Source of the DNA: Bacilli bacterium
GTDB lineage: Bacteria; Bacillota_I; Bacilli_A; RFN20; CAG-826
Assembly (NCBI GenBank): GCA_017940265.1
Contig: JAGAYY010000025.1
Coordinates: 711 to 64,710, forward strand
DNA length: 64,000 nt
Reading direction: 5' to 3'
In this document: one piece after another, positions 2,457 through 50,464 of the stretch
Numbering within the stretch: position 1 is the stretch's first letter
Layout: every line of letters begins with the position of its first letter
Notes under the pieces: generated by a model
The model's database searches: none
What the model was told of the DNA's origin: nothing
The model's input: the letters and a program-made list of their open reading frames with translations, nothing else
Made by a program: the position numbers and the translations under genes

Positions 2457-2839
2457 ATGAAAGAATAGCGAAAAAGTCTAGAGAAATAATAATAGGTCTT
2501 AGCTTGTCTCCAAAAGGATCAGTAGACTATAGATTTACATATATTCCGGTAGGTACAAAACTAGGATGGTTCAAGAAAACTAAGGAACCGTTGTGGAAAA
2601 CGTATCACCTAGGTCAGTACTTAACTTACTTGACTAGGGATGAATTATCTAGGTGGATGTCTTCTGGGTGTTTCGTCGGAGTAGATAATGTTGTATATTT
2701 TAAACCATCAGTCACTATATATTACTCTGGTTATGATTTCTTATCGAAGAAGAATACAGAAACTAAATTCTTTGATACAGAGTCAGAAGCTATAGAATAC
2801 TTTGAGGAATTAAAGAAAGAAAACAATTTATATGAGTGA
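2453..2839 (+). CDS. hypothetical protein
   Basis: 128-aa ORF with ATGA overlaps at both ends. Confidence 0.5.
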   Translation: MNERIAKKSREIIIGLSLSPKGSVDYRFTYIPVGTKLGWFKKTKEPLWKTYHLGQYLTYLTRDELSRWMSSGCFVGVDNVVYFKPSVTIYYSGYDFLSKKNTETKFFDTESEAIEYFEELKKENNLYE

Positions 2840-4946
2840 AAGATTAGAACGAATAGAGAAACTTAAACAAGTCGCGGAAACTGTTAAGACTGAGTACGTA
2901 GGTCTTGATGGAATTATTGATGAACTTGAGAAAGCTATCTGTCCTTGGTATATAACTCCGGAGATCATTGAAAGACCACAAATTATATCACTCTGGGGTA
3001 TGACTGGGACAGGTAAAACTTCGGTCGTTAAACGTTTTCTCGAACTTTTGGGTCTAATTCCTAAAACTTTGTTCTTGGATTGTGGGGAACTTGCCGGGGA
3101 TTCTGGACGCTCATTGACAGATAAAATAAATGATTACCTTGGAGAAGATGAAGATGCGATGTCTCCAGAGGGATTAGTCTTTGTTTTCGATGAATTTCAG
3201 TATTCCAGAACCTTAAATGAATCTGGGGAAGAGGTTACCAAATCAAATCTTCGACCCGTTTGGAGTTTAATAGATTCAGGTATCATTAATCTTACCGAAA
3301 ACTCTTGGGATGCTGGAACATTCGAAAGTTTTTATGAGGATTTGAGATCTTTTGCGGACTTACACCCTGGGATTGTACTAGATGAATGTAATATAATTAA
3401 TCCCGATGACGTTAAGACTATCTTAGGGGACTTGGGATTAGTCTATTTCGGACGTGGAATTCCTGGATTTATGAAACCGAAGAAATCTTATAGTCATAAT
3501 TCGGATGAAGATGCTAAAGAAGATGAGGATCCATATCGTCCACTTAGAGTTATCGAAGATAATATTGTTAGAATCTTGAGATGGAAACTTAAGCAGAGAT
3601 GTGGAATAGAATATTTTCAGTCCGTTCTTGGTAGATTAATGTCCGCCAAGACCTTGATTGAATTTGTTGATGTCTTAGGGGAACAACGTCAATATGTATT
3701 AGCCCCTAGAAATATAGATTGTTCTGGTTCGCTAGTATTCATCTTAGGAAACTTAGATGAAGCCTATCGAAGTTCAGAGGACATAAATCCAGATCTTGAT
3801 GCCGATATGTTCTATGATACAACAAGTAAAGTAACTATTTCAGATATTAAAGAGGCATTAAAGAAAAGATTTAGACCAGAACAAATTGCTAGATTTGGGA
3901 ATAACATTATTAGATACCCCTCCTTATCTCGGGCCCATTTTATTGAATTAATTGAGAAAGAATGTGATCGAGTATGTAGAAGATTCACTGAGTCGACGGG
4001 TATATCAGTTAGAGTGGCTGAAGATCTTAAGAACTTATTATACTCGGAAGGTGTTTATCCAGTCCAAGGAGCAAGACCGATTTTCACTACTATCTCAACT
4101 ATCCTAACTCCATTATTTTCTAGGATCCTGATTTTCCTCGACTCCAAAGAAAATAAAGAGTCATACAATGTTATTCTCTCATTAAATGGTCAAACTGATT
4201 TTAAACGTCAGGAAATCAAAGCTTACATAGAATATTCCGATGTTATGAGAGAGACAGTAACAGTTCCATTACAACTTGGGGCTGAACGTGATCCTGCCTG
4301 TCGGAAAACTCGAGTTCCCAATAGTGTTCATGAGTCAGGGCATGCAATCGTTATGGCATACTTAACGGGAATAATCCCCACCCAAGTAATATCGGTATCT
4401 ACTGATCATGGTGGATTTTGTCTCACCTATGATAAAGATAAACATTCAGAGATCCCCTCTCGTGGTGATATAGCTAATAATGTATGTATCGGGTTAGCGG
4501 GATACGAAGCTGAAAAATTAATCTTTGGTGAACGGTCAGAAAAATTACTGTGTGGATCAACAAGCGATATAGAAACGACTTGGAATGAATTCGCGCAAGA
4601 AGCATATCGTGGAGGATATTTTGAACCTTTCAGTTATTCTTCCTATCAAACGGAAAATACGACTGATGGGATACCTTCTGGATATGGGGATGATTGGTTG
4701 CGCGATAAAATCAAGTCGGAGTTTGATCGCTTACGTAATAACACAGTTAATATCCTGACCGAAAATAAAAAACTTCTCTGTACAATGGCAAAGAAGATGT
4801 CTGAGAGTGGTGGTCTAAGTGCCCCTGAAATAAAAGATCTCATCGACAAAAACTACGAGGGAACACTAACCTCCGAAAGACTTGCCGAAGCTGCAGAGGA
4901 TAATAGTTATTCTTGGTATCTCAAGAAACTGGAAGAACAAGTCTAA
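2832..4946 (+). CDS. AAA+ ATPase fused to an FtsH-like (M41) zinc metalloprotease domain
   Basis: Walker A is GMTGTGKTS and Walker B-like is VFVFDEF. The C-terminal HESGHAIV is an HExxH motif in FtsH-like context. No N-terminal TM helices are evident. Confidence 0.7.
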   Translation: MSERLERIEKLKQVAETVKTEYVGLDGIIDELEKAICPWYITPEIIERPQIISLWGMTGTGKTSVVKRFLELLGLIPKTLFLDCGELAGDSGRSLTDKINDYLGEDEDAMSPEGLVFVFDEFQYSRTLNESGEEVTKSNLRPVWSLIDSGIINLTENSWDAGTFESFYEDLRSFADLHPGIVLDECNIINPDDVKTILGDLGLVYFGRGIPGFMKPKKSYSHNSDEDAKEDEDPYRPLRVIEDNIVRILRWKLKQRCGIEYFQSVLGRLMSAKTLIEFVDVLGEQRQYVLAPRNIDCSGSLVFILGNLDEAYRSSEDINPDLDADMFYDTTSKVTISDIKEALKKRFRPEQIARFGNNIIRYPSLSRAHFIELIEKECDRVCRRFTESTGISVRVAEDLKNLLYSEGVYPVQGARPIFTTISTILTPLFSRILIFLDSKENKESYNVILSLNGQTDFKRQEIKAYIEYSDVMRETVTVPLQLGAERDPACRKTRVPNSVHESGHAIVMAYLTGIIPTQVISVSTDHGGFCLTYDKDKHSEIPSRGDIANNVCIGLAGYEAEKLIFGERSEKLLCGSTSDIETTWNEFAQEAYRGGYFEPFSYSSYQTENTTDGIPSGYGDDWLRDKIKSEFDRLRNNTVNILTENKKLLCTMAKKMSESGGLSAPEIKDLIDKNYEGTLTSERLAEAAEDNSYSWYLKKLEEQV

Positions 4947-5940: not shown

Positions 5941-7449
5941 TTAGTTGATCTCTCCTTCTTTATCAAAAGTAACAGATGCCCAAACGAAGTGACTTAACAT
6001 TATCTCTTTCTTAAGGTTTTCAGACATTCCCGATATCCCTTTTTTAAATTTGAGAATATCATCGAGTGTTACTTTTGAGATTATATATTCTTTCGGATCT
6101 TTTTTAGTTCCAATATTAACAGCCGTATATTCTGAGATTCCGAGACCATAATTATCTCTAGCATTCTCAATTACAGCTTTGATTGTATCTCTAAGCTCTC
6201 CTTCACCATATAGATCTTTGAGAGTGACAACTTCTAGTTTATAATCAGTAGATTTAATTCTCTGTTTACTAGTGTTGTTCTCCAGTTTAATTCTATTTTG
6301 GTTAGCATAATAGTCATGGTATTTCAAATAGGTATCGAAGTCTCCGTCTAGCTTAGTTCCTTGCCATTCGTGAAAAACTTCTGTTGCTAATCCTAGAAGA
6401 TTTAATCCAATGTTTTTGAAAAGCTCTGGATAATATAAGTTCTTCAAGAAATTACCATCTTTAATTTGTGTTGCTATAAAAAGCTTAGAAAGATTCCTTA
6501 TGTTCTCCTCATCTGAGTTTTTATTTCCAATATAGAGGTCTGCTCTATAATGATCAATATCCCAAGAATCTATAATTGTAGTAAAAATATGATTCTTAAT
6601 AATATCAGACAACTCAAGAACTGGGATTCTATCAGAGAGAAGAGAACGGCCTGGTGATATAATACTAAAAATATCTAATACAGATTTAAGATTTTCTCCT
6701 GATGTATTCTTAAAAATATCTTTCCAATAGTCTTGAATATCACCGGAAAAATCATCCTCTAAGGCAACACCAGAATCTACCATACTTGATTTAGTATATC
6801 CTATCTTTATTTCGCCCATTCCTCTTCCTCTTAATATATCAGAAATTTTCTTTTCATCATCGTTCAAAGATTCAACATATAAGAAAACTTCAGACATATC
6901 ACTCTCAGAAGATTTAAATTCTGAGTTTAATTCATCCTTACGTCGAGAAAGTACCGGACATAAGTAGTAAACCGATGAGGTAATAGTATCATAACGATGG
7001 CCTGGAACCCATTTCTTTGTTTTCTTACACATCTCACAATTGATTCGACGCTTCATTTCTTCAAAGTAGGATTTATATTCCAACATTTCCGGACATACAA
7101 AGCTAACTTTTCCGAGTTGATTATCAGAAAAACAAGCTTCATATTCACCGTTAATAATTCCATGACCAATATCAACCTGAGCTATTATTTTACTAAGTTC
7201 GGGGAGATGAAAATTTGGAATTTCATACCAATCATCTACCGGAAATTCTGAACATTTAGCATAGATTGATAAATTTTCACCGATCATGAGTTTAAAACTA
7301 TTTTCATATAGTCTTACTTCCTCACATACTTCGTTTCCAATTAGTTTAAGTACTTCGGATTGATATTGTTTCTTTTCAACGGCCGATAAATATACCTTTT
7401 TAGTACCTATCGGGAAATACGCAATAATCTCACTGGTTAATCTCCACAT
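5941..7449 (-). CDS. hypothetical protein
   Basis: 502-aa ORF whose stop abuts the infA start. Confidence 0.55.
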   Translation of the reverse strand: MWRLTSEIIAYFPIGTKKVYLSAVEKKQYQSEVLKLIGNEVCEEVRLYENSFKLMIGENLSIYAKCSEFPVDDWYEIPNFHLPELSKIIAQVDIGHGIINGEYEACFSDNQLGKVSFVCPEMLEYKSYFEEMKRRINCEMCKKTKKWVPGHRYDTITSSVYYLCPVLSRRKDELNSEFKSSESDMSEVFLYVESLNDDEKKISDILRGRGMGEIKIGYTKSSMVDSGVALEDDFSGDIQDYWKDIFKNTSGENLKSVLDIFSIISPGRSLLSDRIPVLELSDIIKNHIFTTIIDSWDIDHYRADLYIGNKNSDEENIRNLSKLFIATQIKDGNFLKNLYYPELFKNIGLNLLGLATEVFHEWQGTKLDGDFDTYLKYHDYYANQNRIKLENNTSKQRIKSTDYKLEVVTLKDLYGEGELRDTIKAVIENARDNYGLGISEYTAVNIGTKKDPKEYIISKVTLDDILKFKKGISGMSENLKKEIMLSHFVWASVTFDKEGEIN

Positions 7450-7450
7450 A

Positions 7451-7864
7451 TTATTCCTCTATTTTAAATTTTATTTTCTTAGGGACGCTATTGAAACTAA
7501 TCTTGCGTCCGCCGAAAAGTTTCAAAACATCAGATAACATTTCTTTAATCTCGATATCCTCATCACGAATAAGATTAGGGTCAAGAATTTCTAGATGAGC
7601 CAACTTAAATTTACGTTTTACTGTATCAGGCTCGTCTAAACCAACACAAGAGAAGAGTTTACCATCCGTGGCCAAGATTAATTTCTGTAGCTCAGGAATT
7701 TTATAACACTCATAATTAAATCGCATTTCAACAAACTGCTCAAAACTAGTACAAACTTCACGTAGTTCTGGGGTTCGTCGACAAGAGATATAATCTTTCT
7801 CATATGTACTAAGAGTTCGATTAACCTCTGCTATAACTTTAAGTAATATTTGGTCTAAGTCCAT
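7451..7864 (-). CDS. hypothetical protein
   Basis: 137-aa ORF. Confidence 0.5.
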   Translation of the reverse strand: MDLDQILLKVIAEVNRTLSTYEKDYISCRRTPELREVCTSFEQFVEMRFNYECYKIPELQKLILATDGKLFSCVGLDEPDTVKRKFKLAHLEILDPNLIRDEDIEIKEMLSDVLKLFGGRKISFNSVPKKIKFKIEE

Positions 7865-25210: not shown

Positions 25211-27784
25211 ATGGAAGACTTAAAATTTACAGTTTCAGATGAACTTAAAGTTATACTGAGAAATGCTAATCAAATGGCAAAATCAAATAGCGATAAGGAA
25301 CTGACTGTCGAACTTATTACGTATCTTATCCTCAAACGATATATAAACGAGGAGGGAGACCTAGAGAGTAATATTATTAAGGGTGTTCTAGATGATTACA
25401 AAGATTCAGCAAAGAAAGAAATGCTTGAAGCTTGTAAGAAAGAATATGAGAGAACAGCCAAGAAAACATCATTATTCTCAAGATTTGAAAATTATACATT
25501 CTCGGAAGGATTAGAGGAAACCTTCGAACGTACTAATACAATAATGTCTATTAAAAATGAAATAGAAAGTACGGAGGGTAATATTATAACTACCGAGCAT
25601 CTCTTAGTCTACGGAATTCTACATCATAAATGTAAATTGGTAGACCTCCTTAGTGGAACTTATCAATTTAATCATATAAGATTCATGGCTCAGCAAGTAT
25701 GTGAGTCAATCTTTAGTGAACCAGAACTTAAGGAGAAGAGAATAGAAACTCCCCCAGAAAAAGAGGATACGACTGAGGAAGATGATGATAAGTTTGAAAG
25801 AGCCGCCGAAGGACAAGATGCAATCTCCGTCCGAAAACATGATCCCAATTCGAAAACTCCATATCTAGATCAATTTGGCCTTGATATGACACAAAAGGCA
25901 AAAGATGGAGGATATGACCCAGTAATCGGTAGAGATAAGGAGATTTCACAAGTCATCGAGGTATTATGTTGTCGAAAGAAAAATAATGCAGCTCTTCTTG
26001 GTGAGGCTGGTGTCGGTAAAAGTGCACTAGTAGAAGGTCTTGCTCAGAAAATAGCGAACGATGATGTACCTATGGAGCTTAGAGGAAAACAAATATTCTC
26101 GGTTTCCACCACAGATCTTCAGGCAGGTACAATCTATAGAGGACAACTTGAGGAAAGAATTCAGAAGTTATGTGAGGAGGTCAGAGATAATCGAGATATC
26201 ATTCTCTATATCGACGAATTCCATCAAGCTGTTTCCGATAGTTCCTCTAATATTGCCCAAATGATGAAACCTTCTTTAGCACGTGGAGAACTCAATGCGA
26301 TTGTTTCTACGACTGTATCTGAATATAGAAGATATGTTGAGAAAGATGCCGCTCTTAAAAGAAGATTTGAACCTATCTACTTAGAAGAGCCTAACACCGA
26401 GGAAACTGTTAAGATCTTGGAAGGATTAGCTCCTGGATATGCTAAATTCCACCATGTTCGTTTTGGTGAAGGGGTTCTTGAAAAGTGTGTGGAATGGTCT
26501 GGACGTTATATAACAGATAGACAATTCCCAGATAAAGCTATTGGAATTATGGATATGGCTGCTTCGGTAACTAAACTCCAAAATCCATTAGATTATGAGA
26601 AGAGAACCGAACTACAGGAAGCTATTGATAAACTTAACTCACAAGCTGACTCCGCCATTGAGAATTCAGAATTTGAAAGGGCGTCTAAGATCAGGGATGC
26701 TAGAATTAAAATAGAATCCGAACTTAAAGATCTCATTCAGGCTCAAGAAGAGAACCAAGAGGGATGGCCAGAAGTTACTATTAATGAAGTTTCCTCAGTA
26801 ATCTCTAAATTATCTGGAGTTCCTATTGACAAAATAATGAACTCTGATATGGGTAAGGTTAGAGAAATGAAAGCTACCTTAGGGAAACAAGTAATTGGAC
26901 AGGATAAAGCTATTGAAGAATTATCTGTAGCCCTTCAGAGAAATATCTTAGGTTTACGTGATCCGAAAAAACCTATCGCATCATTCCTTTTAGTGGGACC
27001 GACTGGAGTAGGTAAAAGCTTGGTCTCTAAGGTTCTCGCCCAAGAATTTTTTGGATCAGATAACTCTTTGGTTACTATTGCTTGTTCTGAATATATGCAA
27101 GAATGGGCAGAGTCTAAGTTATTGGGCTCGGCTCCCGGTTATGTTGGATTCGAAAATACAGAACCGCGCCTCTATGTTCTTAAGCGTCGGCCTTTCTGTG
27201 TTCTCTTAATTGATGAAATTGAGAAATCACACAGTAACTTATATAATATTTGGTTGAATATGCTTGAAGAAGGAGAAGTAACCTTGAGTAGCGGCGAGAA
27301 AGTTAGCTGTAGAGATTGTATTATTATCTTCACAGGTAATGTCGGAACTAAATCTCTCGAACTTAAGTCTGGGGATCTTGGATTTGGCACTAAGAGTAAA
27401 GAAGATAAGAAAAAGACCGACGTTGCTACAGTGATGAAAGAAGTTAAAAAAGAATTTCGGCCCGAGTTTTTAAATAGACTTTCTGGAATTATAGTATTTA
27501 ATCCCTTGGGGAACGAGGAACTTCTGCAGATCTTCGACTTAGAATTAGGTAAGCTTCAGGAACGACTCTCTGGTAAATATAAGATCGGAGTTAGTAAAAA
27601 GCTCAAATCTTGGATAGTGGATAAAGCTGAACCGCAATATGGAGCTAGATCCTTACAGAGATTAATTGTCGAGTATGTAGAACAAGAAATCTGTAAAAAA
27701 CTACTTGATGAAGATCCTGGCGACAAGAAAAAAGTAAGTCTTGACCTTGGAAAAGATGAGGTAATTAAAGTTAAGTTTTCATGA
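25211..27784 (+). CDS. Clp/Hsp100 double-ring AAA+ unfoldase (ClpC/ClpB-like)
   Basis: NBD1 has GEAGVGKSALVEGLA and ILYIDEFH. NBD2 has GPTGVGKSLVSKVLA and VLLIDEIEK. A UVR-like linker (FERASKIRDARIKIE) and an LGF tripeptide (GDLGFG) in NBD2 are present. Confidence 0.8.
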   Translation: MEDLKFTVSDELKVILRNANQMAKSNSDKELTVELITYLILKRYINEEGDLESNIIKGVLDDYKDSAKKEMLEACKKEYERTAKKTSLFSRFENYTFSEGLEETFERTNTIMSIKNEIESTEGNIITTEHLLVYGILHHKCKLVDLLSGTYQFNHIRFMAQQVCESIFSEPELKEKRIETPPEKEDTTEEDDDKFERAAEGQDAISVRKHDPNSKTPYLDQFGLDMTQKAKDGGYDPVIGRDKEISQVIEVLCCRKKNNAALLGEAGVGKSALVEGLAQKIANDDVPMELRGKQIFSVSTTDLQAGTIYRGQLEERIQKLCEEVRDNRDIILYIDEFHQAVSDSSSNIAQMMKPSLARGELNAIVSTTVSEYRRYVEKDAALKRRFEPIYLEEPNTEETVKILEGLAPGYAKFHHVRFGEGVLEKCVEWSGRYITDRQFPDKAIGIMDMAASVTKLQNPLDYEKRTELQEAIDKLNSQADSAIENSEFERASKIRDARIKIESELKDLIQAQEENQEGWPEVTINEVSSVISKLSGVPIDKIMNSDMGKVREMKATLGKQVIGQDKAIEELSVALQRNILGLRDPKKPIASFLLVGPTGVGKSLVSKVLAQEFFGSDNSLVTIACSEYMQEWAESKLLGSAPGYVGFENTEPRLYVLKRRPFCVLLIDEIEKSHSNLYNIWLNMLEEGEVTLSSGEKVSCRDCIIIFTGNVGTKSLELKSGDLGFGTKSKEDKKKTDVATVMKEVKKEFRPEFLNRLSGIIVFNPLGNEELLQIFDLELGKLQERLSGKYKIGVSKKLKSWIVDKAEPQYGARSLQRLIVEYVEQEICKKLLDEDPGDKKKVSLDLGKDEVIKVKFS

Positions 27785-41790: not shown

Positions 41791-42073
41791 ATGGATAACT
41801 ACTTATAGTAATCAAGAACCCGATCCTGAATTTTATGAGCCACTCTGGACATATTTAGGGATTAAAATTTTGGAAAAACTAGATCAAGTACCTCCATCAC
41901 CAGAAAGTTGGTTTGGTTGGAAGTGTACTGTAGATTTTCCAAATATTCCGAGAGAAGAATTAGTTTTTAGGCCCGGTGAGTATTCAATTAAAGCATACCA
42001 TCGAGGTAGATTAGTAACAGATATTAGATTAGGAGGTTTGTATGAACATGCTAAGAAAAATCAATTGTTATAG
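41756..42073 (+). CDS. hypothetical protein
   Basis: 105-aa ORF. Confidence 0.4.
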   Translation: MMMLRDLLETFRWITTYSNQEPDPEFYEPLWTYLGIKILEKLDQVPPSPESWFGWKCTVDFPNIPREELVFRPGEYSIKAYHRGRLVTDIRLGGLYEHAKKNQLL

Positions 42074-42563
42074 TCACTATGAATTTAATGATCTGTGCGA
42101 AGAAAGAGGTTGGAATGATGATAAAAATCCTCCTCCTTCCGGGATAGCACTGATTTCTATTTGTTGTACTCCAGAATGTGCTAGGTATTGGTTGGAGGAA
42201 GATGATGATCATTGGTTTAAGGAAGAACACCCTAACGTACTTAACTTAAACTTCGATGATATTCCGCGCGATCAGATAGAGTGGAAAGGTCATATATTCT
42301 ACGGTCTAACTAAAGAAGATGCTAAGAGATGTTTTGATTTCATCGAGAGAGTAATTCCAGAGGTTAGTGAGATTTGGATACATTGTCGCGCGGGTCAATC
42401 TCGAAGTCAGGGAGTAGTACGTTATATTTTGGATTGCTATTCAGATCAATATGAATTAGAGACTAGAAATGATAACCCATGTCTTACCCCGAATATCGAT
42501 GTAGTAGCTAAATTAAAAAGATGCTATGTAGAATCTATACTCAAAGAGGATATATCGGATTAA
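42042..42563 (+). CDS. Cys-based (CX5R) protein phosphatase, dual-specificity/PTP-like
   Basis: The active-site signature is IHCRAGQSRSQG (HCxxGxxRS). Confidence 0.65.
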   Translation: MNMLRKINCYSHYEFNDLCEERGWNDDKNPPPSGIALISICCTPECARYWLEEDDDHWFKEEHPNVLNLNFDDIPRDQIEWKGHIFYGLTKEDAKRCFDFIERVIPEVSEIWIHCRAGQSRSQGVVRYILDCYSDQYELETRNDNPCLTPNIDVVAKLKRCYVESILKEDISD

Positions 42564-43443: not shown

Positions 43444-43456
43444 TACAAATATAAGG
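43444..43456 (-). promoter_or_regulatory. CCTTATA-NN-TGTA box (ccttatatttgta), leftward
   Basis: Lies 60 nt upstream of ATG 43384. It contains TAtaTTTG. Confidence 0.4.
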
Positions 43457-43511: not shown

Positions 43512-43524
43512 CACATGTATAAGG
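43512..43524 (-). promoter_or_regulatory. CCTTATA-NN-TGTG box (ttaaaaccttatacatgtg), leftward
   Basis: Second leftward copy in the divergent region. Confidence 0.35.
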
Positions 43525-43532
43525 TTTTAAGC

Positions 43533-43545
43533 CCTTATTAATGTT
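43533..43545 (+). promoter_or_regulatory. CCTTATT-NN-TGTT box abutting ATG 43546
   Basis: The sequence ccttattaatgtt is followed directly by ATG. Confidence 0.45.
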
Positions 43546-43749
43546 ATGAAACAGCTTTGTAAATGTAGAGAAGAATTAGAAAATATTATTAATAGTTGGA
43601 TAAGACCATTCTTTAAACCAAACATATCCGAGGTTACTTATCCATGTATTTTTGTTTGGACATCTGAACCAATATATAGACCAGAACTCCTAGAAGGAAC
43701 TCTTGTAACTTACTATTGGGAGTTTGTTTATCCTGAAGATCTATTATGA
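43546..43749 (+). CDS. hypothetical small protein
   Basis: 67-aa ORF. Confidence 0.4.
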   Translation: MKQLCKCREELENIINSWIRPFFKPNISEVTYPCIFVWTSEPIYRPELLEGTLVTYYWEFVYPEDLL

Positions 43750-44093
43750 TTGTATACATATTATTTTGGATTTGGCAGTTCCCTCAAAATATATTAGGGT
43801 GGTTATTATCGGCCCGTCATAAAAACAGACATATAGGACCGGCCGGATTTAAGTATATTCATAGTAAGGGATGGATTCCTTGTATGTGTTTAGGAGAATA
43901 TCTTTTTGTAGGTCCTTCATCATTAGTTAGATTTGCATACGGCCGGGGAGTTTTGTCTGTAATCTTCGGGCCGTTATATCTTCCTTTTATATCATTGCCA
44001 GCCATAATTGTATCTTTGTTCGGTAGGTATTATTATATGGCACATTACTCTACTAGGTGGGCACTTAGAATAGGGAAACGAAAACCTTATTAG
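43746..44093 (+). CDS. small membrane protein
   Basis: 115 aa with hydrophobic segments IVYILFWIWQF and VIFGPLYLPFISLPAIIVSLF. Confidence 0.45.
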   Translation: MIVYILFWIWQFPQNILGWLLSARHKNRHIGPAGFKYIHSKGWIPCMCLGEYLFVGPSSLVRFAYGRGVLSVIFGPLYLPFISLPAIIVSLFGRYYYMAHYSTRWALRIGKRKPY

Positions 44094-44097
44094 TGTT

Positions 44098-44373
44098 ATG
44101 ATAAAACAATTAAAAGTAGTTGGTTATAAAAAACAATATTGTTGGTCTTCGCGAAGAACAAAGATCGGAATATGGGAAGATGATGTTGGTGGTGTGTTAG
44201 TAGCCGTAGCATGTAGATCTTTTGGTCTGTGCTTAAGCGCTATCTCAGAAAACATCGAAGAATTAAGGCAAGATTTCAATGATGCCTTAGAAATTCTGAC
44301 TTTCCGTTTCCCAGATAAACCCGCGAGGAAATGGTTAAGAAAAATTATTCAAACAAATTATAAACAATTATGA
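44098..44373 (+). CDS. hypothetical protein
   Basis: 91-aa ORF with an ATGA overlap with the ATPase gene. Confidence 0.4.
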   Translation: MIKQLKVVGYKKQYCWSSRRTKIGIWEDDVGGVLVAVACRSFGLCLSAISENIEELRQDFNDALEILTFRFPDKPARKWLRKIIQTNYKQL

Positions 44374-46880
44374 AAAATTACAAAGGTTTAACAAATTCAG
44401 AAGTCCTAGAATCAAGGGCTACCCACGGAGAGAATAGACTCACCCCTCCGAAGAAAACTCCATGGTATATCTTATTCCTGGAGAAATTCAAAGATCCTAT
44501 TATAGTAATCCTCTTAGTGGCAGCAGCTATTTCTATTGTCGTAGGATTCTTTCAGGGATCATTCATTGAGTCTGTAGGTATAATTGTTGCTATCGGACTG
44601 GCTACTGGTGTATCTTTTTGGATGGAATACTCCTCAAAGAAAAAATTCGATATCCTGAATCAAGTCAGTGATACCGAGCCAGTCAAGGTAATTAGAGAAG
44701 GAAATGTCACTGAAATTCCCAAGACGGAAGTAGTTGTTGGTGATATTGTAATTCTTGAGACTGGTGCTGAAATTCCTGCTGATATTGATCTTCTTGAGGC
44801 TCTAGAACTTAAGGTGGATGAGTCTTCTATGACCGGTGAATCTATGCCTGCTTCTAAACGAGCAAAAGCAGATAGTGAAGGTGAATATACTGGTTCTGGA
44901 TTTGCTCCTTGGTTTGTTCTTAGGAGTACAAAAATTACAGAGGGTACAGGTGTTGGAGTAGTTGTTAAGATTGGTGATGAAACTGAAATAGGAAAAACCT
45001 CTAGAGCTGCAATGGAGGAGGTTGATGAAGAAACTCCACTCAATAAACAGCTCAATGGATTAGCTGATCTTATTAATAAAGCCGCATTCTCATTAGCTGG
45101 CTTACTCCTTCTATTCTTAAATGTTCATCATTTTGTATTCACCGACTTCGATCCCAGCTTCATGGCTATTTTCACGGAAGAAGTTAAGTATCTCATGATG
45201 GCATTGGCGTTAGTTATTTGTGCTGTCCCAGAAGGAATGCCACTAGCTTCTACGCTTTCATTGGCATTTGCTATGGATACAATGAGAAAACAGAATAACC
45301 TCATTAAAAAGCTTCATGCATGTGAAACTATCGGATGTACTAATATTATATTTAGTGATAAGACTGGTACGCTGACTCAAAATAAGATGGTTGTTGTGGA
45401 TACTGACTTAGTAAATAAAGAGAAGCTCTTTATTAATGCGGCCATAAATTCTACAGCCAATCTTGATGAATCTGGAGAAGCTTTAGGAAATCCGACAGAA
45501 GGTGCAACTCTCAAATTCTTGAAGTCTGAGGGTACTGACTATCGTGAGCATCGTCGCTTAGAGGTTATTGATCAAAAGCCATTTAATTCCACAGATAAAT
45601 ATATGTCTACAACAGTCAAGGATGGTACCATCTATGTTAAGGGTGCTCCTGAGATTGTTGCTGGATTAGCTAAAGATAATAGCTATCTTGGGAAGGTAGA
45701 GGAACAACAAGCGAAGGGCAGACGTGTACTCAGTTTTGCTTCAGGTAACTCTATGGATACTCTTATCTATGACGGTTCAGTATTTATTGAGGATCCTGTA
45801 CGAGTAGATGTTCCTCAGGCAGTTAAAGATTGTTATCATGCAGGTATCAATGTAGTGATGATGACTGGCGATAACATTAAAACTGCAGCTGAAATTGGTC
45901 GTCAAGCAGGGTTCAAGAAAAATGAGACTACTGGAAAAGTTTGGGCAATTGAGGCTAAGGAATTTGATAACATAGATTGGAACAATAACGAATATCCTAC
46001 AGTTATCGCAAGATGTAAACCCAGTGATAAACTCCACATTCTCAAGTCATTCCAAGAGAAATATAAGGGAACTGACGATGAGTTCGTATGTGCAATGACA
46101 GGGGATGGTGTTAATGATAGCCCATCTCTCAATCACGCAAATATTGGTATCGCTATGGGATCAGGAACTTCTGTGGCTAAAGAAAGTGCAGATATTGTAC
46201 TCTTAGATGACGCATTCCCAAGTATTGTTACCGGCGTTAAGTGGGGTCGAAGTTTATATAAGAATATTCAATCTTTCCTCACTTTCCAGCTCATCATAAA
46301 TGTAGCAGTATGTTTCACTGTCCTGGTAGGTCCGTTACTTGGCATTGATCTTCCATTTACAGTAACACAGCTTCTGTGGGTTAATATTGCTATGGATACT
46401 CTAGCTGCTATTTGTCTTGCTACAGAGAAGGCAGACTCGAATGTAATGGATGAACTTCCACGTAAGCAGACAGAATTTATTATAACTAGTCCGATGTATA
46501 AGACTATATTCGGAATGGGTATTCTGGTATTTTTAATCCTAAGCTCTATCATTTATGACATTTCACATAACAATAGTGCTTGGTTTGGATTAGATCTCAC
46601 TGGATTGTTTGCTACATTCTTGATGATTTGCTGCTGGAATATCTTCAATATTCGTGTATTCCGTAAGAACCATAGTATCTTCTATGGACTCGGAACCAAT
46701 AAGTATTTCTTAATTGGAACACTTGTATTGTTTATTGGCACAGTTCTTATTGTAGAATTTGGTGGAGAAGTTTTCAATACACACCCACTCTCGGTAACTG
46801 AATGGATTAAGATTATTGCTGCAACAAGCATTATCGCTTTCGGACGTGAAGCTTGGTATTGGATTAAGAAACTTTTGTAA
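44370..46880 (+). CDS. P-type cation-transporting ATPase (P2-type, Ca2+-ATPase-like)
   Basis: Motifs seen: TGES, DKTGTLTQN (phosphorylation site), MTGDGVNDSPSL (hinge), VPEGMP in the TM4 position. About 8-10 hydrophobic segments. Confidence 0.85.
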   Translation: MKNYKGLTNSEVLESRATHGENRLTPPKKTPWYILFLEKFKDPIIVILLVAAAISIVVGFFQGSFIESVGIIVAIGLATGVSFWMEYSSKKKFDILNQVSDTEPVKVIREGNVTEIPKTEVVVGDIVILETGAEIPADIDLLEALELKVDESSMTGESMPASKRAKADSEGEYTGSGFAPWFVLRSTKITEGTGVGVVVKIGDETEIGKTSRAAMEEVDEETPLNKQLNGLADLINKAAFSLAGLLLLFLNVHHFVFTDFDPSFMAIFTEEVKYLMMALALVICAVPEGMPLASTLSLAFAMDTMRKQNNLIKKLHACETIGCTNIIFSDKTGTLTQNKMVVVDTDLVNKEKLFINAAINSTANLDESGEALGNPTEGATLKFLKSEGTDYREHRRLEVIDQKPFNSTDKYMSTTVKDGTIYVKGAPEIVAGLAKDNSYLGKVEEQQAKGRRVLSFASGNSMDTLIYDGSVFIEDPVRVDVPQAVKDCYHAGINVVMMTGDNIKTAAEIGRQAGFKKNETTGKVWAIEAKEFDNIDWNNNEYPTVIARCKPSDKLHILKSFQEKYKGTDDEFVCAMTGDGVNDSPSLNHANIGIAMGSGTSVAKESADIVLLDDAFPSIVTGVKWGRSLYKNIQSFLTFQLIINVAVCFTVLVGPLLGIDLPFTVTQLLWVNIAMDTLAAICLATEKADSNVMDELPRKQTEFIITSPMYKTIFGMGILVFLILSSIIYDISHNNSAWFGLDLTGLFATFLMICCWNIFNIRVFRKNHSIFYGLGTNKYFLIGTLVLFIGTVLIVEFGGEVFNTHPLSVTEWIKIIAATSIIAFGREAWYWIKKLL

Positions 46881-46890
46881 AACTAATATT

Positions 46891-46921
46891 AGAATTAGAG
46901 TTTAGGCTCTAATTCTTTTTC
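46891..46921 (+). terminator. rho-independent-type terminator
   Basis: 10-bp stem agaattagag/ctctaattct followed by TTTTT. Confidence 0.65.
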
Positions 46922-46981
46922 ACCTCTCAGACAGCTTGATGTCCTTATTATTGGGGAGGAAATAATCCTCCTCAATTAAAT

Positions 46982-49900
46982 ATGAATAGAAGAATTACAA
47001 TATTTGATGAAAAAGATTTTGAAACCAATTATCTACTCTGGTGGTCTCTACCTCTAGGTCAAGAAATCTATTCTATCAGTAACTTAATGGCAATGACACG
47101 TCCAGATCTCGAAAGAATACTTAGTATCGGAGAAGGAGACGCTGTATTAGTTGCCTGTTCTGATGGATGGAAGATGATTAAGGATAGATATCATGTTGGA
47201 GTTAGATCTGAAGGTTTTGTAGATTGCCAACAGCTGAAGAGGTTATCTGTTGAGGGCGGAGCATTCCTGAAGTGCATACCTGCCGGAGAATTCCCAGAAC
47301 CAGAAGATATAGCTGAGTTCATGGATCCTGGATTTACTACACCAGTTAAATATGATTGGTTTAAGCAAAAGGTTCTTAAGACTTTGGAAGAAGCTAATCG
47401 ATTTATGGACTGGGCAGAGAGTCAACCCATGAATGTACATTGGGGATTTGACTACGAGGGTTCTGGTATGCCATTAGATAAGTGGTATGAACTTTCCGGA
47501 TTTTCACTATGTACTACTAGAATTGGTGCATTTGTTAGTTTGACTGATATTAGACATCGTTCTAGTCCAGAGGATTATCAAGCTTTTCTTCTCAGATTGG
47601 GAAGATTTTTAGAGACTAGAATGAAAACTATCTGGGTATTCAATATGCAATATGAGTTTCTAGTGAGTCATAGAATGTTAGGTGGAGTAGATCTATATAA
47701 CCTATGTGATTCTGGTGTTTTCAATATACTGGATGGATATCATTTAAATAAGAAATATTCACTTAAGTGGACTGCTCAGAGAATTTTAGGTGTTCAAGTG
47801 TGGGATGCAGAATTTGATAGAATCTCAGATCTCATCGACTCTATGTTATTCACTGAAGTTGGAAAAACTAAAGCTGAAAAACACAAAGTACTTAAAGTTA
47901 CTCCCACCGATTATCAAGGAACTCCGGAATGGGCTGAACTATGTAAGAGATATCCGACTTATATAGCAGAATTCGAGTCTCTTATAGCGGAATACTGGGG
48001 AAATCCATTTATGTGTATTCCTTCAGATATCCTAGGTTATTACTGTAATCTTGATGCATTCTATACTTTAATGCTATATGAAACCAAGAAAACAGAATAT
48101 ACTTGGGAAGCTATAGATACTTTTCTTGATAACCTTAGATTAGCATGTAGACTTCATTCTTGTGGTATACCTAAATGGGAATCTTATCGTAAGGAATATG
48201 AAGTTTATTGTGAAGAACAGATGGCATGGGGTATAACCTATTGTGCTGCCGCTAGATGTAAAATCAAAATGAATAAACATCAAGCTAAGATGGCAGACAT
48301 AAAAAAATACCCCGAGATAGCACAGAAACTACTTAAGAATAATAAATTCTTTGGTGGAGATCCTATTGCAATAACTAAAGATATCCTAGTCTCTAATCTG
48401 GATACAATGGATACAACTGAAACAGGATTGAATGATGGTCTCTTGCTTATGAACTATGGACCTGACTTCGCTGAAAAATTCCTCGAAGTTGTTAAGAATG
48501 CAATGGTTCAGGTTAAGATGAAAACTAAGATAGATGATGGAATAATTAGAAAAAAGAAAATCCTAGGAATCATAGCCGAGGAAGTTACTAAACTGATCGG
48601 ATTAGATAAACTTAAACTAGGACCTAAACATATCGAGCTTGAAAAATATCTGTATTATGAAAGAGCATATAACGAACTCATTAAGATTTCTAGAACTCAA
48701 CTCACAGATATTAATAATGTACCTGATGCTATCATAGCTTTCGGCCAGAAATTTACACGACTCGAATATTCAGATTATATATCCGAGAATTATTTCAAGT
48801 GTAAGAGTCCGATAGAAAATGATGAAATCTGTCTCGAGTTTGCACAATTATTTCCTTCCGAGTCGAGTTTTCTGGCCGCCTTACATGATAGCATTCAACA
48901 GCTTAATGGTACTACAGGATTTTATAAAAACTTGGGTATAACTACGATAGAGGATGCATTTAAACATTTCCAAACCGAATACACTAAAGTATGGAATGGA
49001 ACACCTATCGAACAAACCGATTATCCAGAAAAAGTCTATTCATTAGCGTATTCCTTCTATAATAACCTTAAGTGCGACGAAGTAAAAGAAATTTGGTCAG
49101 ATTTCAAGGGTTTCGAATCACAAGAGAAGTTTTTCGGGTATGTAGGAGATCAATTCCTCGACTATGAAAAACCATTCGAGCCAACTGACTTAGATAATAA
49201 CTTCTTCTTCATGAGAAAGTTAGTAGTTAGTTATCTTATGTATAAAAAATATGCCAAAGTTCTTAGTACTTATATTGACGGAATGTTCACAAAAACAGAT
49301 ACTTGGGTAATGGAAGATCCGATCAGCCATGTAATGATACGAGAGGCTGATCCATCCGAACCAGGAGCTGTTTGTAAGATGAGACCAAAATTCCAATGTA
49401 TGGAAAAAAGCTCTAAACGATGGAGTTCTGGTTATCATACAATTATAAGTCATTCTGATATCAAAAGTACTCTTCGATCTTATTCAGGACACTTACTTTC
49501 GTACTTTGACATAAGTAGTGCGGAGGTAAAGTCTGCTGGTTTTGCTAGTGGTGATCCTGATTTGATTAATATGTTTATAAATGGAATTGATGTATATATT
49601 GCAACAGCTAAACTTTATCTTGGAGAAGCAGGTTGGGGAAAATTAACCAAAGGAGATCAGAAAGAATGGAGAAAAAAATTTAAAACAATTTTCCTAGGAA
49701 TTCTGTATGGTCTCGGAAAACAATCTTTGGCAACCCGACTTAATTGTAGTGTAGACGAGGCTGAAAAAATCATTCAAGCAGTTTATACAGCATATCCAAA
49801 ACTTAGAGAATATGTGGCTGGTCAACAGCAATATGTTCTTGAGCATGAAGGTTATATTAATACCTTCTTTGGCGATAAACTTAGAGTTGCTGAGTGGAAA

Positions 49901-50464
49901 TGGTATAAGAAGGCAAAAACCGAAAGAGAGAAAAAGAATCTCGAAGCTAGAATGGCAAGACTTGGGGTAAATCTTCCTATTCAAGGAGGAACAAGTACTG
50001 CTATGAGTTCAGGTTTCTTCAATGACCTTAGAGTTGCCAAACAGGAGGGTTGGGCATTAACAAGTTTTGTAACGGTTCATGATTCAAATACTTGTGATTT
50101 TAGTGTTGATAAGCTTTGGGGAATACGAAGCTTTTATGATAAAAACTTCACTGACTTCTGTTATGAAAAGACGGGTATCAAGTTATTGTTTGATATCTTA
50201 ATAGGAGTAACATATGAAGATGCCTGTGAAGCTAAACAAATAAGTGATGATATTGTAGAACTTAAAGGTAATGCAAGATCTCATTTAATGATAATCGAAG
50301 AGATGAATAATTGTCCTGGTCTTAAATATGAGATTAATGTTCCACTAGAAAGCATTGTTCCAAATTATATAGAAGATCCAGTTCAAAGGTTCGTTAAAGA
50401 AAAGGGTTGTTCGATGGTAATGGATAAATCTAGTTATACCATTCAATATCGAAAACTTAGTTAA
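46982..50464 (+). CDS. family A DNA polymerase with an N-terminal 3'-5' exonuclease region
   Basis: Exonuclease motifs: FDYEGSG and YYCNLDAFY. Polymerase motifs: A YFDISSAEVK, B RKKFKTIFLGILYGLG, C TVHDS. Confidence 0.8.
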   Translation: MNRRITIFDEKDFETNYLLWWSLPLGQEIYSISNLMAMTRPDLERILSIGEGDAVLVACSDGWKMIKDRYHVGVRSEGFVDCQQLKRLSVEGGAFLKCIPAGEFPEPEDIAEFMDPGFTTPVKYDWFKQKVLKTLEEANRFMDWAESQPMNVHWGFDYEGSGMPLDKWYELSGFSLCTTRIGAFVSLTDIRHRSSPEDYQAFLLRLGRFLETRMKTIWVFNMQYEFLVSHRMLGGVDLYNLCDSGVFNILDGYHLNKKYSLKWTAQRILGVQVWDAEFDRISDLIDSMLFTEVGKTKAEKHKVLKVTPTDYQGTPEWAELCKRYPTYIAEFESLIAEYWGNPFMCIPSDILGYYCNLDAFYTLMLYETKKTEYTWEAIDTFLDNLRLACRLHSCGIPKWESYRKEYEVYCEEQMAWGITYCAAARCKIKMNKHQAKMADIKKYPEIAQKLLKNNKFFGGDPIAITKDILVSNLDTMDTTETGLNDGLLLMNYGPDFAEKFLEVVKNAMVQVKMKTKIDDGIIRKKKILGIIAEEVTKLIGLDKLKLGPKHIELEKYLYYERAYNELIKISRTQLTDINNVPDAIIAFGQKFTRLEYSDYISENYFKCKSPIENDEICLEFAQLFPSESSFLAALHDSIQQLNGTTGFYKNLGITTIEDAFKHFQTEYTKVWNGTPIEQTDYPEKVYSLAYSFYNNLKCDEVKEIWSDFKGFESQEKFFGYVGDQFLDYEKPFEPTDLDNNFFFMRKLVVSYLMYKKYAKVLSTYIDGMFTKTDTWVMEDPISHVMIREADPSEPGAVCKMRPKFQCMEKSSKRWSSGYHTIISHSDIKSTLRSYSGHLLSYFDISSAEVKSAGFASGDPDLINMFINGIDVYIATAKLYLGEAGWGKLTKGDQKEWRKKFKTIFLGILYGLGKQSLATRLNCSVDEAEKIIQAVYTAYPKLREYVAGQQQYVLEHEGYINTFFGDKLRVAEWKWYKKAKTEREKKNLEARMARLGVNLPIQGGTSTAMSSGFFNDLRVAKQEGWALTSFVTVHDSNTCDFSVDKLWGIRSFYDKNFTDFCYEKTGIKLLFDILIGVTYEDACEAKQISDDIVELKGNARSHLMIIEEMNNCPGLKYEINVPLESIVPNYIEDPVQRFVKEKGCSMVMDKSSYTIQYRKLS

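Follow-up and report, generated by a model that had tools for sequence, protein, structure and literature searches.

Why would a bacteriophage carry an ion pump, and which ion would such a pump move? The question is raised by a gene at positions 44370-46880 (+ strand) of a stretch of DNA of 64,000 nucleotides (the window), which covers positions 711-64710 of contig JAGAYY010000025.1 (C18 in the following) of the GenBank assembly GCA_017940265.1. C18 is the largest contig of a metagenome-assembled genome (MAG, also called the bin here) of 63 contigs and 1.73 Mb that was deposited as a Bacilli bacterium. The gene encodes a P-type ATPase of 836 amino acids (aa), which, judging from its sequence, is probably a functional, minimal pump of the PMCA type (P2B-like) of a Jug-like jumbo gut phage of approximately 376 kb, and manipulation of host Ca2+ would be its best-supported function. 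A Ca2+-translocating P-type ATPase was described in the Jug phages by Chen et al. (Sci Adv 2026, preprint August 2025; PMC12880540), and the hypothesis of host-Ca2+ manipulation is published there for relatives of the window pump. The phenomenon of a phage pump with an upstream partner is already in print, and the C18 copy is a divergent relative; what is added here is a single-site reading of the ion site, a selection test, the boundaries of the transcription unit and a confident model of the partner protein.

Class and Ion Site of the Pump

The open reading frame (ORF) is full-length, as a preliminary description of this DNA had it, and the catalytic signatures listed there were all found intact: TGES at residues 155-158, PEGMP at 287-291, DKTGTLT at 330-336 (with Asp330 as the aspartate of the phosphorylation motif) and TGDGVNDSPSL at 577-587, in which GDGVND begins at Gly578. 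TGDN is found at 499-502, and the N-domain residues aligning with F487, K492, K515 and R560 of SERCA are kept. Five Pfam domains were recognised, including E1-E2_ATPase, Hydrolase, Cation_ATPase_N and Cation_ATPase_C, and the hydropathy profile gives ten hydrophobic segments in a 2+2+6 pattern (approximately residues 43-62, 63-87, 230-258, 264-300, 633-655, 660-686, 703-734, 736-764, 776-804 and 807-825).

The assignment to the P2 type made in the preliminary description is sharpened by hidden Markov models of NCBIfam to the PMCA type (P2B), since TIGR01517 is matched with 569.6 bits (cut-off 507.05) and is the sole equivalog that is passed. The rival models all stay under their cut-offs (PMR1 443 vs 798 bits, SERCA 392 vs 703, H+ 316 vs 616, Mg2+ 229 vs 611, with the Na/K and K/Na models likewise far under), and TIGR01494 is matched with 280 bits (cut-off 62). 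The top relatives in the PDB are all Ca2+ pumps (ACA8, LMCA1, SPCA1 and PMCA1), ACA8 being the best sequence match (E = 2.4e-105). The TIGR01517 match spans residues 4-820 and Cation_ATPase_C stops at residue 831, which means that homology fills residues 4-831 of 836 and that there is no terminal extension able to hold an autoinhibitor of the calmodulin type. As predicted from these matches, the ATPase is like the core of PMCA, but it is no regulated PMCA of the eukaryotic type.

The ion site was read from residue alignments to ACA8 and LMCA1 and from an alignment of 57 sequences, with positions assigned to the SERCA numbering through the known SERCA1a motifs. The ligands of site II are present as Glu288 (transmembrane segment M4, in PEGMP) and Asn672 and Asp676 (M6), together with Asn644 (M5). 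All four residues are unchanged in 56 of the 57 sequences; the remaining one (L003) is that of a distantly related ATPase, of a different class, encoded in the same bin. Val647, Met675 and Cys754 stand at the SERCA site-I positions E771, T799 and E908, which are non-acidic both in the phage clade and in its Bacteroidota sister clade. A/M/Q, the pattern of PMCA/ACA, is found there in the sister clade and in the majority of phage copies; the bin's own pump has E/T/E and is of the two-site type. The ion site is thus predicted to follow the single-site pattern of PMCA, with site II kept and the second SERCA site absent.

Some details weigh against this reading. Val and Cys are found where PMCA has Ala and Gln, and the phage clade varies at these two positions (V/T/A/C/L and C/N/Q/V), so the pump may deviate in its finer properties. 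It is already known that pumps of the SPCA type use the same site II for Mn2+, and because of this the substrate cannot be read from the sequence with certainty. An active pump for another cation, be it Mn2+ (as in SPCA/PMR1-like pumps), Mg2+, Na+ or H+, with a phage target other than calcium, would also agree with SPCA1 structures being among the best PDB matches and with the unusual and variable vestigial positions Val647 and Cys754, and no assayed bacterial member of the clade of Bacteroidota and phage pumps was found in the literature. It nevertheless seems quite unlikely to us, as the models for other cations are far under their cut-offs and the PMCA-type model alone passes, the M6 motif (NIAMDT) agrees with NLIMDT of PMCA/ACA8, and in other phages the pump is tightly linked to genes for TerB and for TerD, a Ca2+-binding domain, of which C18 has three copies.

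Selection and Origin

The closest relative of the ATPase (locus L009, 98% protein identity) differs from it by 181 synonymous and 19 non-synonymous changes, giving a ratio of non-synonymous to synonymous rates (dN/dS) of 0.023; the pump gene is under strong purifying selection. In a tree of 57 sequences from a quick IQ-TREE search, the window pump and the Jug-type copies, which lie on contigs of about 400 kb, are sisters (SH-aLRT 99), and the group that they form with further phage copies has a Bacteroidota-dominated clade as its sister (SH-aLRT 100). The pump encoded by the bin itself shares just 36% identity with that of the window and groups with Bacilli.

Among the matches listed, the nearest cellular relative is a protein (P0121) of 55% identity, and the named cellular relatives reach 41-42% at most. 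P0121 is encoded on a 16-kb Logan contig of SRR33454320 (L279), between genes for TonB and an ECF sigma factor and near those for UvrA and a protease with a Por_Secre_tail domain, neighbours because of which the contig is considered bacterial and Bacteroidota-like. The 16-member group to which it belongs was at one point taken as an all-viral clade, which is refuted by the position of P0121 on a bacterial contig of the type IX secretion (T9SS) kind; the other two representatives in the group, P0122 and P0125, are on phage-like contigs. As the bacterial P0121 nests among phage copies, the pumps of phages and of Bacteroidota interleave.

A very recent and possibly non-functional capture of a host gene, the outcome that the preliminary description had named as speaking against a phage role, does not agree with these data, in which the nearest cellular protein found is 55% identical, the pump of the bin is distant and has two sites, and dN/dS is 0.023. 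By these sequence comparisons, a recent host capture of the pump is excluded.

Four IMG/VR records (L155, L157, L158 and L159) have pumps on short branches among those of cellular Bacteroidales. These contigs could be pieces of host DNA, flanks of prophages or recent captures, and their pumps are unfit to be counted as phage pumps unchecked.

The Replicon

C18 has 376,162 bp and a GC content of 35.9%, and its two ends overlap exactly over 141 bp. In tetranucleotide usage, it correlates with the remainder of the bin at 0.88, while all other contigs of at least 25 kb reach 0.975-0.995. A Shine-Dalgarno core is found ahead of 3.0% of the long ORFs of C18, a value equal to the background rate, whereas in the rest of the bin it precedes 32% of ORFs over a background of 1.3%. 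Because of the terminal overlap, the foreign tetranucleotide profile and the lack of Shine-Dalgarno usage, we are highly confident that C18 is a jumbo phage in the wrong bin; jumbo phages mis-binned in UHGG MAGs were also noted by the authors of the Jug paper (PMC12880540). C18 makes up 22% of a MAG that was scored as 88% complete and 3% contaminated.

The gene content is in line with this. PHROG matches on C18 include replication and RNA-polymerase genes, and the contig encodes RNA polymerase β-like pieces, a ClpB-like ATPase, an RNA ligase, helicases, a family-A DNA polymerase (PolA), a topoisomerase II, a CCA-adding enzyme, an SbcCD-like nuclease and homing endonucleases. The pump lies among replication genes and just 5' of the DNA polymerase, as had been described, with PolA starting at 46982 and a helicase and a DnaB-like gene at 36.5-39.5 kb of the window. 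In IMG/VR, C18 has relatives on viral contigs of about 400 kb. A candidate for the capsid protein (486 aa, C18:312874-314334) is 85-86% identical to proteins of those contigs of about 400 kb in IMG/VR that carry the Jug-type pump, and its C-terminal 40% has a weak match (E = 1e-6) to a protein that is annotated as "putative major capsid protein" in a myovirus cultured on E. coli. Three genes with a TerD domain, two close together and one apart (152115-152558, - strand; 152863-153423, - strand; 202217-202822, + strand), are present on C18 and on none of the other contigs of the bin.

As for the host, neither CRISPR spacer evidence nor, in the bin, any CRISPR arrays were found, and matches between C18 and the bin are trivial (18-29 nt). 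The absence of Shine-Dalgarno motifs is typical of Bacteroidota, and the C18 pump shows a Bacteroidota affinity in the tree; we infer that the host is a member of the Bacteroidota.

Could the gene have no true phage function at all, being a recent and decaying host capture, an assembly chimera or a mis-binned bacterial gene? C18 was deposited within a bacterial MAG, many matches to P-type ATPases in "phage" databases are evidently host DNA (Listeria, Enterococcus and Salmonella records), and four IMG/VR pumps nest on short branches inside cellular Bacteroidales. Against this, the motifs are all intact and selection is strong, the pair of small gene and pump near PolA recurs in independent assemblies, a phage-specific promoter-like box abuts the unit, Shine-Dalgarno motifs are missing unlike in the bin, and the cellular relatives are distant as given above. 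In our opinion this makes such an explanation extremely improbable.

The Transcription Unit of the Pump

The features around the pump are presented in Table 1. In the window, 19 copies of the pattern CCTTATWNNTG are present where 2.06 are expected, and none of 100 shuffles reaches this number. The 67-aa ORF runs into the 115-aa ORF through an ATGA overlap, as the 91-aa ORF does into the ATPase gene; a gap of 4 nt is left between the 115-aa and 91-aa ORFs. The hairpin behind the ATPase has a ΔG of -12.4 kcal/mol (z = -3.62); a consensus scan gave this palindrome on the minus strand only. The same layout, with the same box in the same place, is found at locus L009. Jug-type loci have a box with one mismatch (TCTTATTAATG) approximately 20 nt 5' of their 77-aa gene, and a hairpin with a T-run is present at the equivalent spot 3' of the ATPase in the Jug-type loci L005-L008, L118-L124 and L163.

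Table 1. Positions (in the window) of the pump gene and the features around it.
Feature	Position	Strand	Evidence or remark
836-aa PMCA-type (P2B-like) P-type ATPase, predicted single-site Ca2+ exporter	44370..46880	+	motifs, Pfam, NCBIfam, alignments
Promoter-like box CCTTATTAATG, 2 nt 5' of the 67-aa gene start	43533..43543	+	pattern CCTTATWNNTG
67-aa ORF, no family match, lineage-specific	43546..43749	+	found only in close relative L009 (93% identity); dN/dS 0.08
115-aa hydrophobic ORF, probable small membrane protein, lineage-specific	43746..44093	+	found only in L009; dN/dS 0.12
Promoter-like box CCTTATTAGTG, 2 nt 5' of the 91-aa gene; heads the unit of 91-aa gene and ATPase	44085..44095	+	
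91-aa soluble partner protein (predicted), orphan β4-α2 fold, homolog of the Jug-phage 77-aa gene	44098..44373	+	
Hairpin of 11 predicted pairs, then UUUUU; terminator-like end of the unit	46891..46916	+	RNA fold
Promoter-like box heading the separate PolA unit	46943..46953	+	pattern CCTTATWNNTG
1160-aa family-A DNA polymerase (PolA)	46982..50464	+	55% identical to PolA near the ATPase on Jug-type contigs

Since the 67-aa and 115-aa ORFs are found only in the lineage of C18 and L009, the conserved unit consists of the small gene and the pump. The preliminary description had suggested that the pump may be translationally coupled to small upstream genes, with a membrane protein at 43546-44373 among them. 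The coupling agrees with the ATGA overlap of the 91-aa ORF and the ATPase, but the segment holds three ORFs and not one; the 115-aa ORF, which belongs to this lineage only, is the sole one that looks convincingly membrane-like, and the conserved coupled partner is the 91-aa protein, predicted to be soluble. The 115-aa ORF has no Pfam match, its Kyte-Doolittle profile (19 residues) peaks at 1.95 over residues 68-93, and its N-terminus is hydrophobic too.

In the 160-nt intergenic region between the 67-aa gene and a divergent 177-aa gene on the minus strand, three boxes are found (43446-43456 and 43514-43524 on the minus strand and 43533-43543 on the plus strand), of which two point left and one right.

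The Small Partner Protein

The 91-aa protein is 32-34% identical to its 77-aa homologs of Jug-type loci, with 24 invariant columns in the alignment and a pairwise E of 4e-7. A profile search extends the family to about 20 clusters of 51-92 aa, none of which has a Pfam domain. The AlphaFold model, made with an alignment of 12 sequences, is confident (pLDDT 90.5, pTM 0.81) and shows a four-stranded β-meander followed by two helices. Foldseek gave no significant analogue of the model in the PDB, with a best E of 0.23 and no TM value over 0.45; Pur-alpha, which came first, has a similar ββββα order and is not significant. On this model, the 91-aa protein would be a soluble orphan domain. A phospholamban-like membrane peptide was also considered and rejected, as the 91-aa protein has a single hydrophobic stretch, which its 77-aa counterparts do not conserve, and is modelled as a globular β/α domain.

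At the cellular pump loci examined, the 77-91-aa gene is absent 5' of the pump. Most likely, the small protein would regulate or assist the phage pump. To hypothesize further, it might be a new, dedicated soluble subunit of a P2B pump, which replaces the calmodulin-type domain and gates the phage Ca2+ exporter, although we regard this modelled role as rather doubtful. The small regulators of P-type ATPases (phospholamban, sarcolipin, FXYD and KdpF) are single-pass membrane peptides, and if the hypothesis is true, gating by a soluble subunit would be a solution unlike theirs. A bolder, related idea is that Ca2+ export by the unit, together with the phage TerD proteins, may blunt a Ca2+-dependent response of the host.

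Proposed Mechanism and Role

During infection, the pump would be inserted in the cytoplasmic membrane of the host and would follow the standard E1/E2 cycle, in which Asp330 is phosphorylated from ATP and dephosphorylated with the TGES loop (155-158). One Ca2+ per ATP would be exported, probably in exchange for H+, along a path through the single site II formed by Glu288, Asn672, Asp676 and Asn644. Because there is no N- or C-terminal autoinhibitory extension of the calmodulin type, the pump would be constitutively active or controlled in trans. The phage-specific promoter-like box would drive the unit of two genes, i.e., those of the 91-aa β4-α2 protein and the pump, and the small protein, which is the sole partner kept across the Jug lineage, would regulate or assist the pump. 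The pump lineage would have come from Bacteroidota long ago and would have been kept by selection in several lineages of gut phages.

To the details of the ion site, further points on the opposing side have to be added. With Pfam and PHROG profiles, no virion hallmark gene came to light on C18: six-frame Pfam searches of C18 with Gp23, Terminase_6N, Phage_sheath_1 and GPW_gp25 gave no match (the control for Gp23 failed too, so that the Gp23 search is uninformative), and 33 ORFs of C18 outside the window gave just nucleic-acid enzymes and homing endonucleases with PHROGs and Pfam. A profile search of the capsid candidate against PDB sequences gave no match, and its AlphaFold model is unusable (pLDDT 43.6). 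The tree comes from a quick search, with cellular relatives sampled among the matches listed. The ATGA overlap is not kept in Jug-type loci, where a gap of 13-82 nt is found, and in L163 a 116-aa ORF is situated between the small partner gene (83 aa) and the pump.

What the export of Ca2+ would bring to the phage can be read in two ways, which concern the role and not the chemistry of the pump: a general lowering of Ca2+ that favours replication, or an arm against membrane damage and host defence, in which the pump would clear Ca2+ leaked through lesions or defence pores in concert with TerD and PspA-like proteins. The latter would fit the arrays TerD-TerD-ATPase, TerD-ATPase and TerB-like-ATPase in other phage lineages, the three terD genes of C18 and the recurrent PspA-TerD-vWA-ATPase neighbourhoods reported in a preprint (10.64898/2026.10.24.761521). 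However, the pump is not next to terD or pspA in C18 or in Jug-type phages (in C18, terD genes are at approximately 152 and 202 kb and the pump at approximately 45 kb), and the C18 pump is situated among replication genes with a promoter-like box of its own. We consider a damage-related role possible, and rather less than probable.

Comparison with Known Pumps and Phages

According to Chen et al. (PMC12880540), Jug phages have genomes of 360-402 kb with 27-30% GC, occur in the human and animal gut and have Bacteroides and Phocaeicola as predicted hosts; the pump is present in 60-74% of their genomes and in 85 other gut phages, is highly transcribed, is co-transcribed with an upstream orphan gene of 77-91 aa and is closest to the pumps of Bacteroides and Phocaeicola. 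The same paper gives three terD genes per Jug genome, two together and one apart, an identity of capsid proteins of approximately 95% between the Alpha and Beta groups, and 39 core genes, the major capsid protein among them, of at least 70% identity across groups. C18 resembles these phages in its size, the circle-type overlap of its ends, the small gene with the pump, the PolA gene nearby and the 2+1 arrangement of terD. It differs in the identity of its ATPase (63-68%), PolA (55%), small protein (32-34%) and capsid candidate (85-86%), in its GC content (35.9%, compared with 26-31% in Jug-type loci), in the overlap of the small gene with the pump start, where Jug-type loci leave a gap, and in the extra upstream 67-aa and hydrophobic 115-aa ORFs. 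Because of the differences in GC content and in the identities of PolA, ATPase and capsid candidate, C18 appears to be a relative of the Jug phages outside the Alpha, Beta, Gamma and Delta groups as described in the paper.

The PMCA-type pumps of Bacteroidota (Prevotella, Paraprevotella, Dysgonomonas, MAGs of Porphyromonadaceae and the L279 contig) form the sister clade and share the domain set and the single-site signature (E, N, A/V, N, M, D, Q-like) with the phage pump, while they are 41-55% identical to it, approximately 25-135 aa longer and without the 77-91-aa gene upstream at the loci examined. Eukaryotic PMCA and ACA8 (PDB 6A69, 8QMP) align in the motifs of M4, M5, M6 and M8 and have a single Ca2+ site, but are 1054-1274 aa long, and the phage pump lacks their calmodulin-binding autoinhibitory extension. 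LMCA1 of Listeria monocytogenes (PDB 6ZHF, 9EUQ; E = 1e-100) is a characterised pump of prokaryotic size with one Ca2+ site (site II); it has the SERCA-like PEAL (M4) and NLVNDS (M6), where the phage has PEGMP and NIAMDT, and Cys754. In LMCA1, an arginine in M8 reportedly fills site I. The Ca2+ ATPase of a chlorovirus (Nucleocytoviricota), cited in the Jug paper as the only earlier viral example, is likewise a virus-encoded Ca2+ pump transcribed during infection (PMC12880540); it is of a eukaryotic virus with an algal host and is set beside the phage pump by description only.

The divergent lineage described here (36% GC, 66% identity) indicates that the pair of small gene and pump is held under strong purifying selection across a long phage divergence, and the pair is a well-defined target for biochemical testing. 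Ion pumps encoded by phages suggest that very large phages take control not just of nucleotide metabolism in infected cells but also of their ionic state, a point that is already in print (PMC12880540). Since Jug-type phages account for approximately 1% of human gut metagenome reads, the pump could affect abundant Bacteroidota.

Distribution and Other Observations

Pumps had been called very unusual cargo for phages in the preliminary description, which no longer holds: relatives are encoded on 270 IMG/VR viral contigs, there is a PHROGs family for the pump (phrog_12316), and the phenomenon was published in 2025-26. The scan of IMG/VR was made with an alignment as the query, which was needed, as the single ATPase protein as query gave no match. 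The pair of small gene and pump near PolA is present on gut contigs of 390-404 kb and on IMG/VR viral contigs, from independent assemblies of many samples.

In other phage lineages, the gene just 5' of the pump encodes TerD (82 bits), a pair of TerD proteins (L280) or a small acidic TerB-like protein (31.7 bits) with ADG..D.EE repeats (L126:4341-4967, L151:4592-4942, L134:4576-4923, L195:4493-4873, L280:2274-3625 and L069:5601-5978), and a similar acidic repeat protein precedes a cellular pump of Lentimicrobiaceae. As TerD, a TerD pair or a TerB-like protein is found there, the upstream partner appears to be swapped lineage by lineage, often for Ter proteins associated with Ca2+ or metals.

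One pump gene is interrupted. At L163:5001-8655 (IMGVR_UViG_3300030381_000254, 254 kb, 26% GC), an ATPase homolog of 63% identity is split inside TGDG|VND by an insert of approximately 1.05 kb, in which the Rfam model Intron_gpI is matched over its full length at 6779-7118 with 34.7 bits (gathering score 50; E = 9e-7) and a 243-aa ORF without a Pfam match is present at 7128-7859. The insert is probably a group I intron with a gene like those of homing endonucleases.

Elsewhere in the window, an 857-aa ClpB/ClpA-like double-AAA+ protein is encoded at 25211-27784 on the plus strand (phrog_4871, E = 2e-185). Another gene on this strand (2832-4946) encodes 704 aa and combines a ClpB D2-small domain with a weak match to Peptidase_M41 (FtsH-type); the phage seems to carry its own machinery for protein unfolding and proteolysis. 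A 173-aa ORF at 42042-42563 (+ strand) weakly matches DSPc (E = 1e-4, under the Pfam cut-off) and contains the CxxxxxR-like motif HCRAGQSRS.

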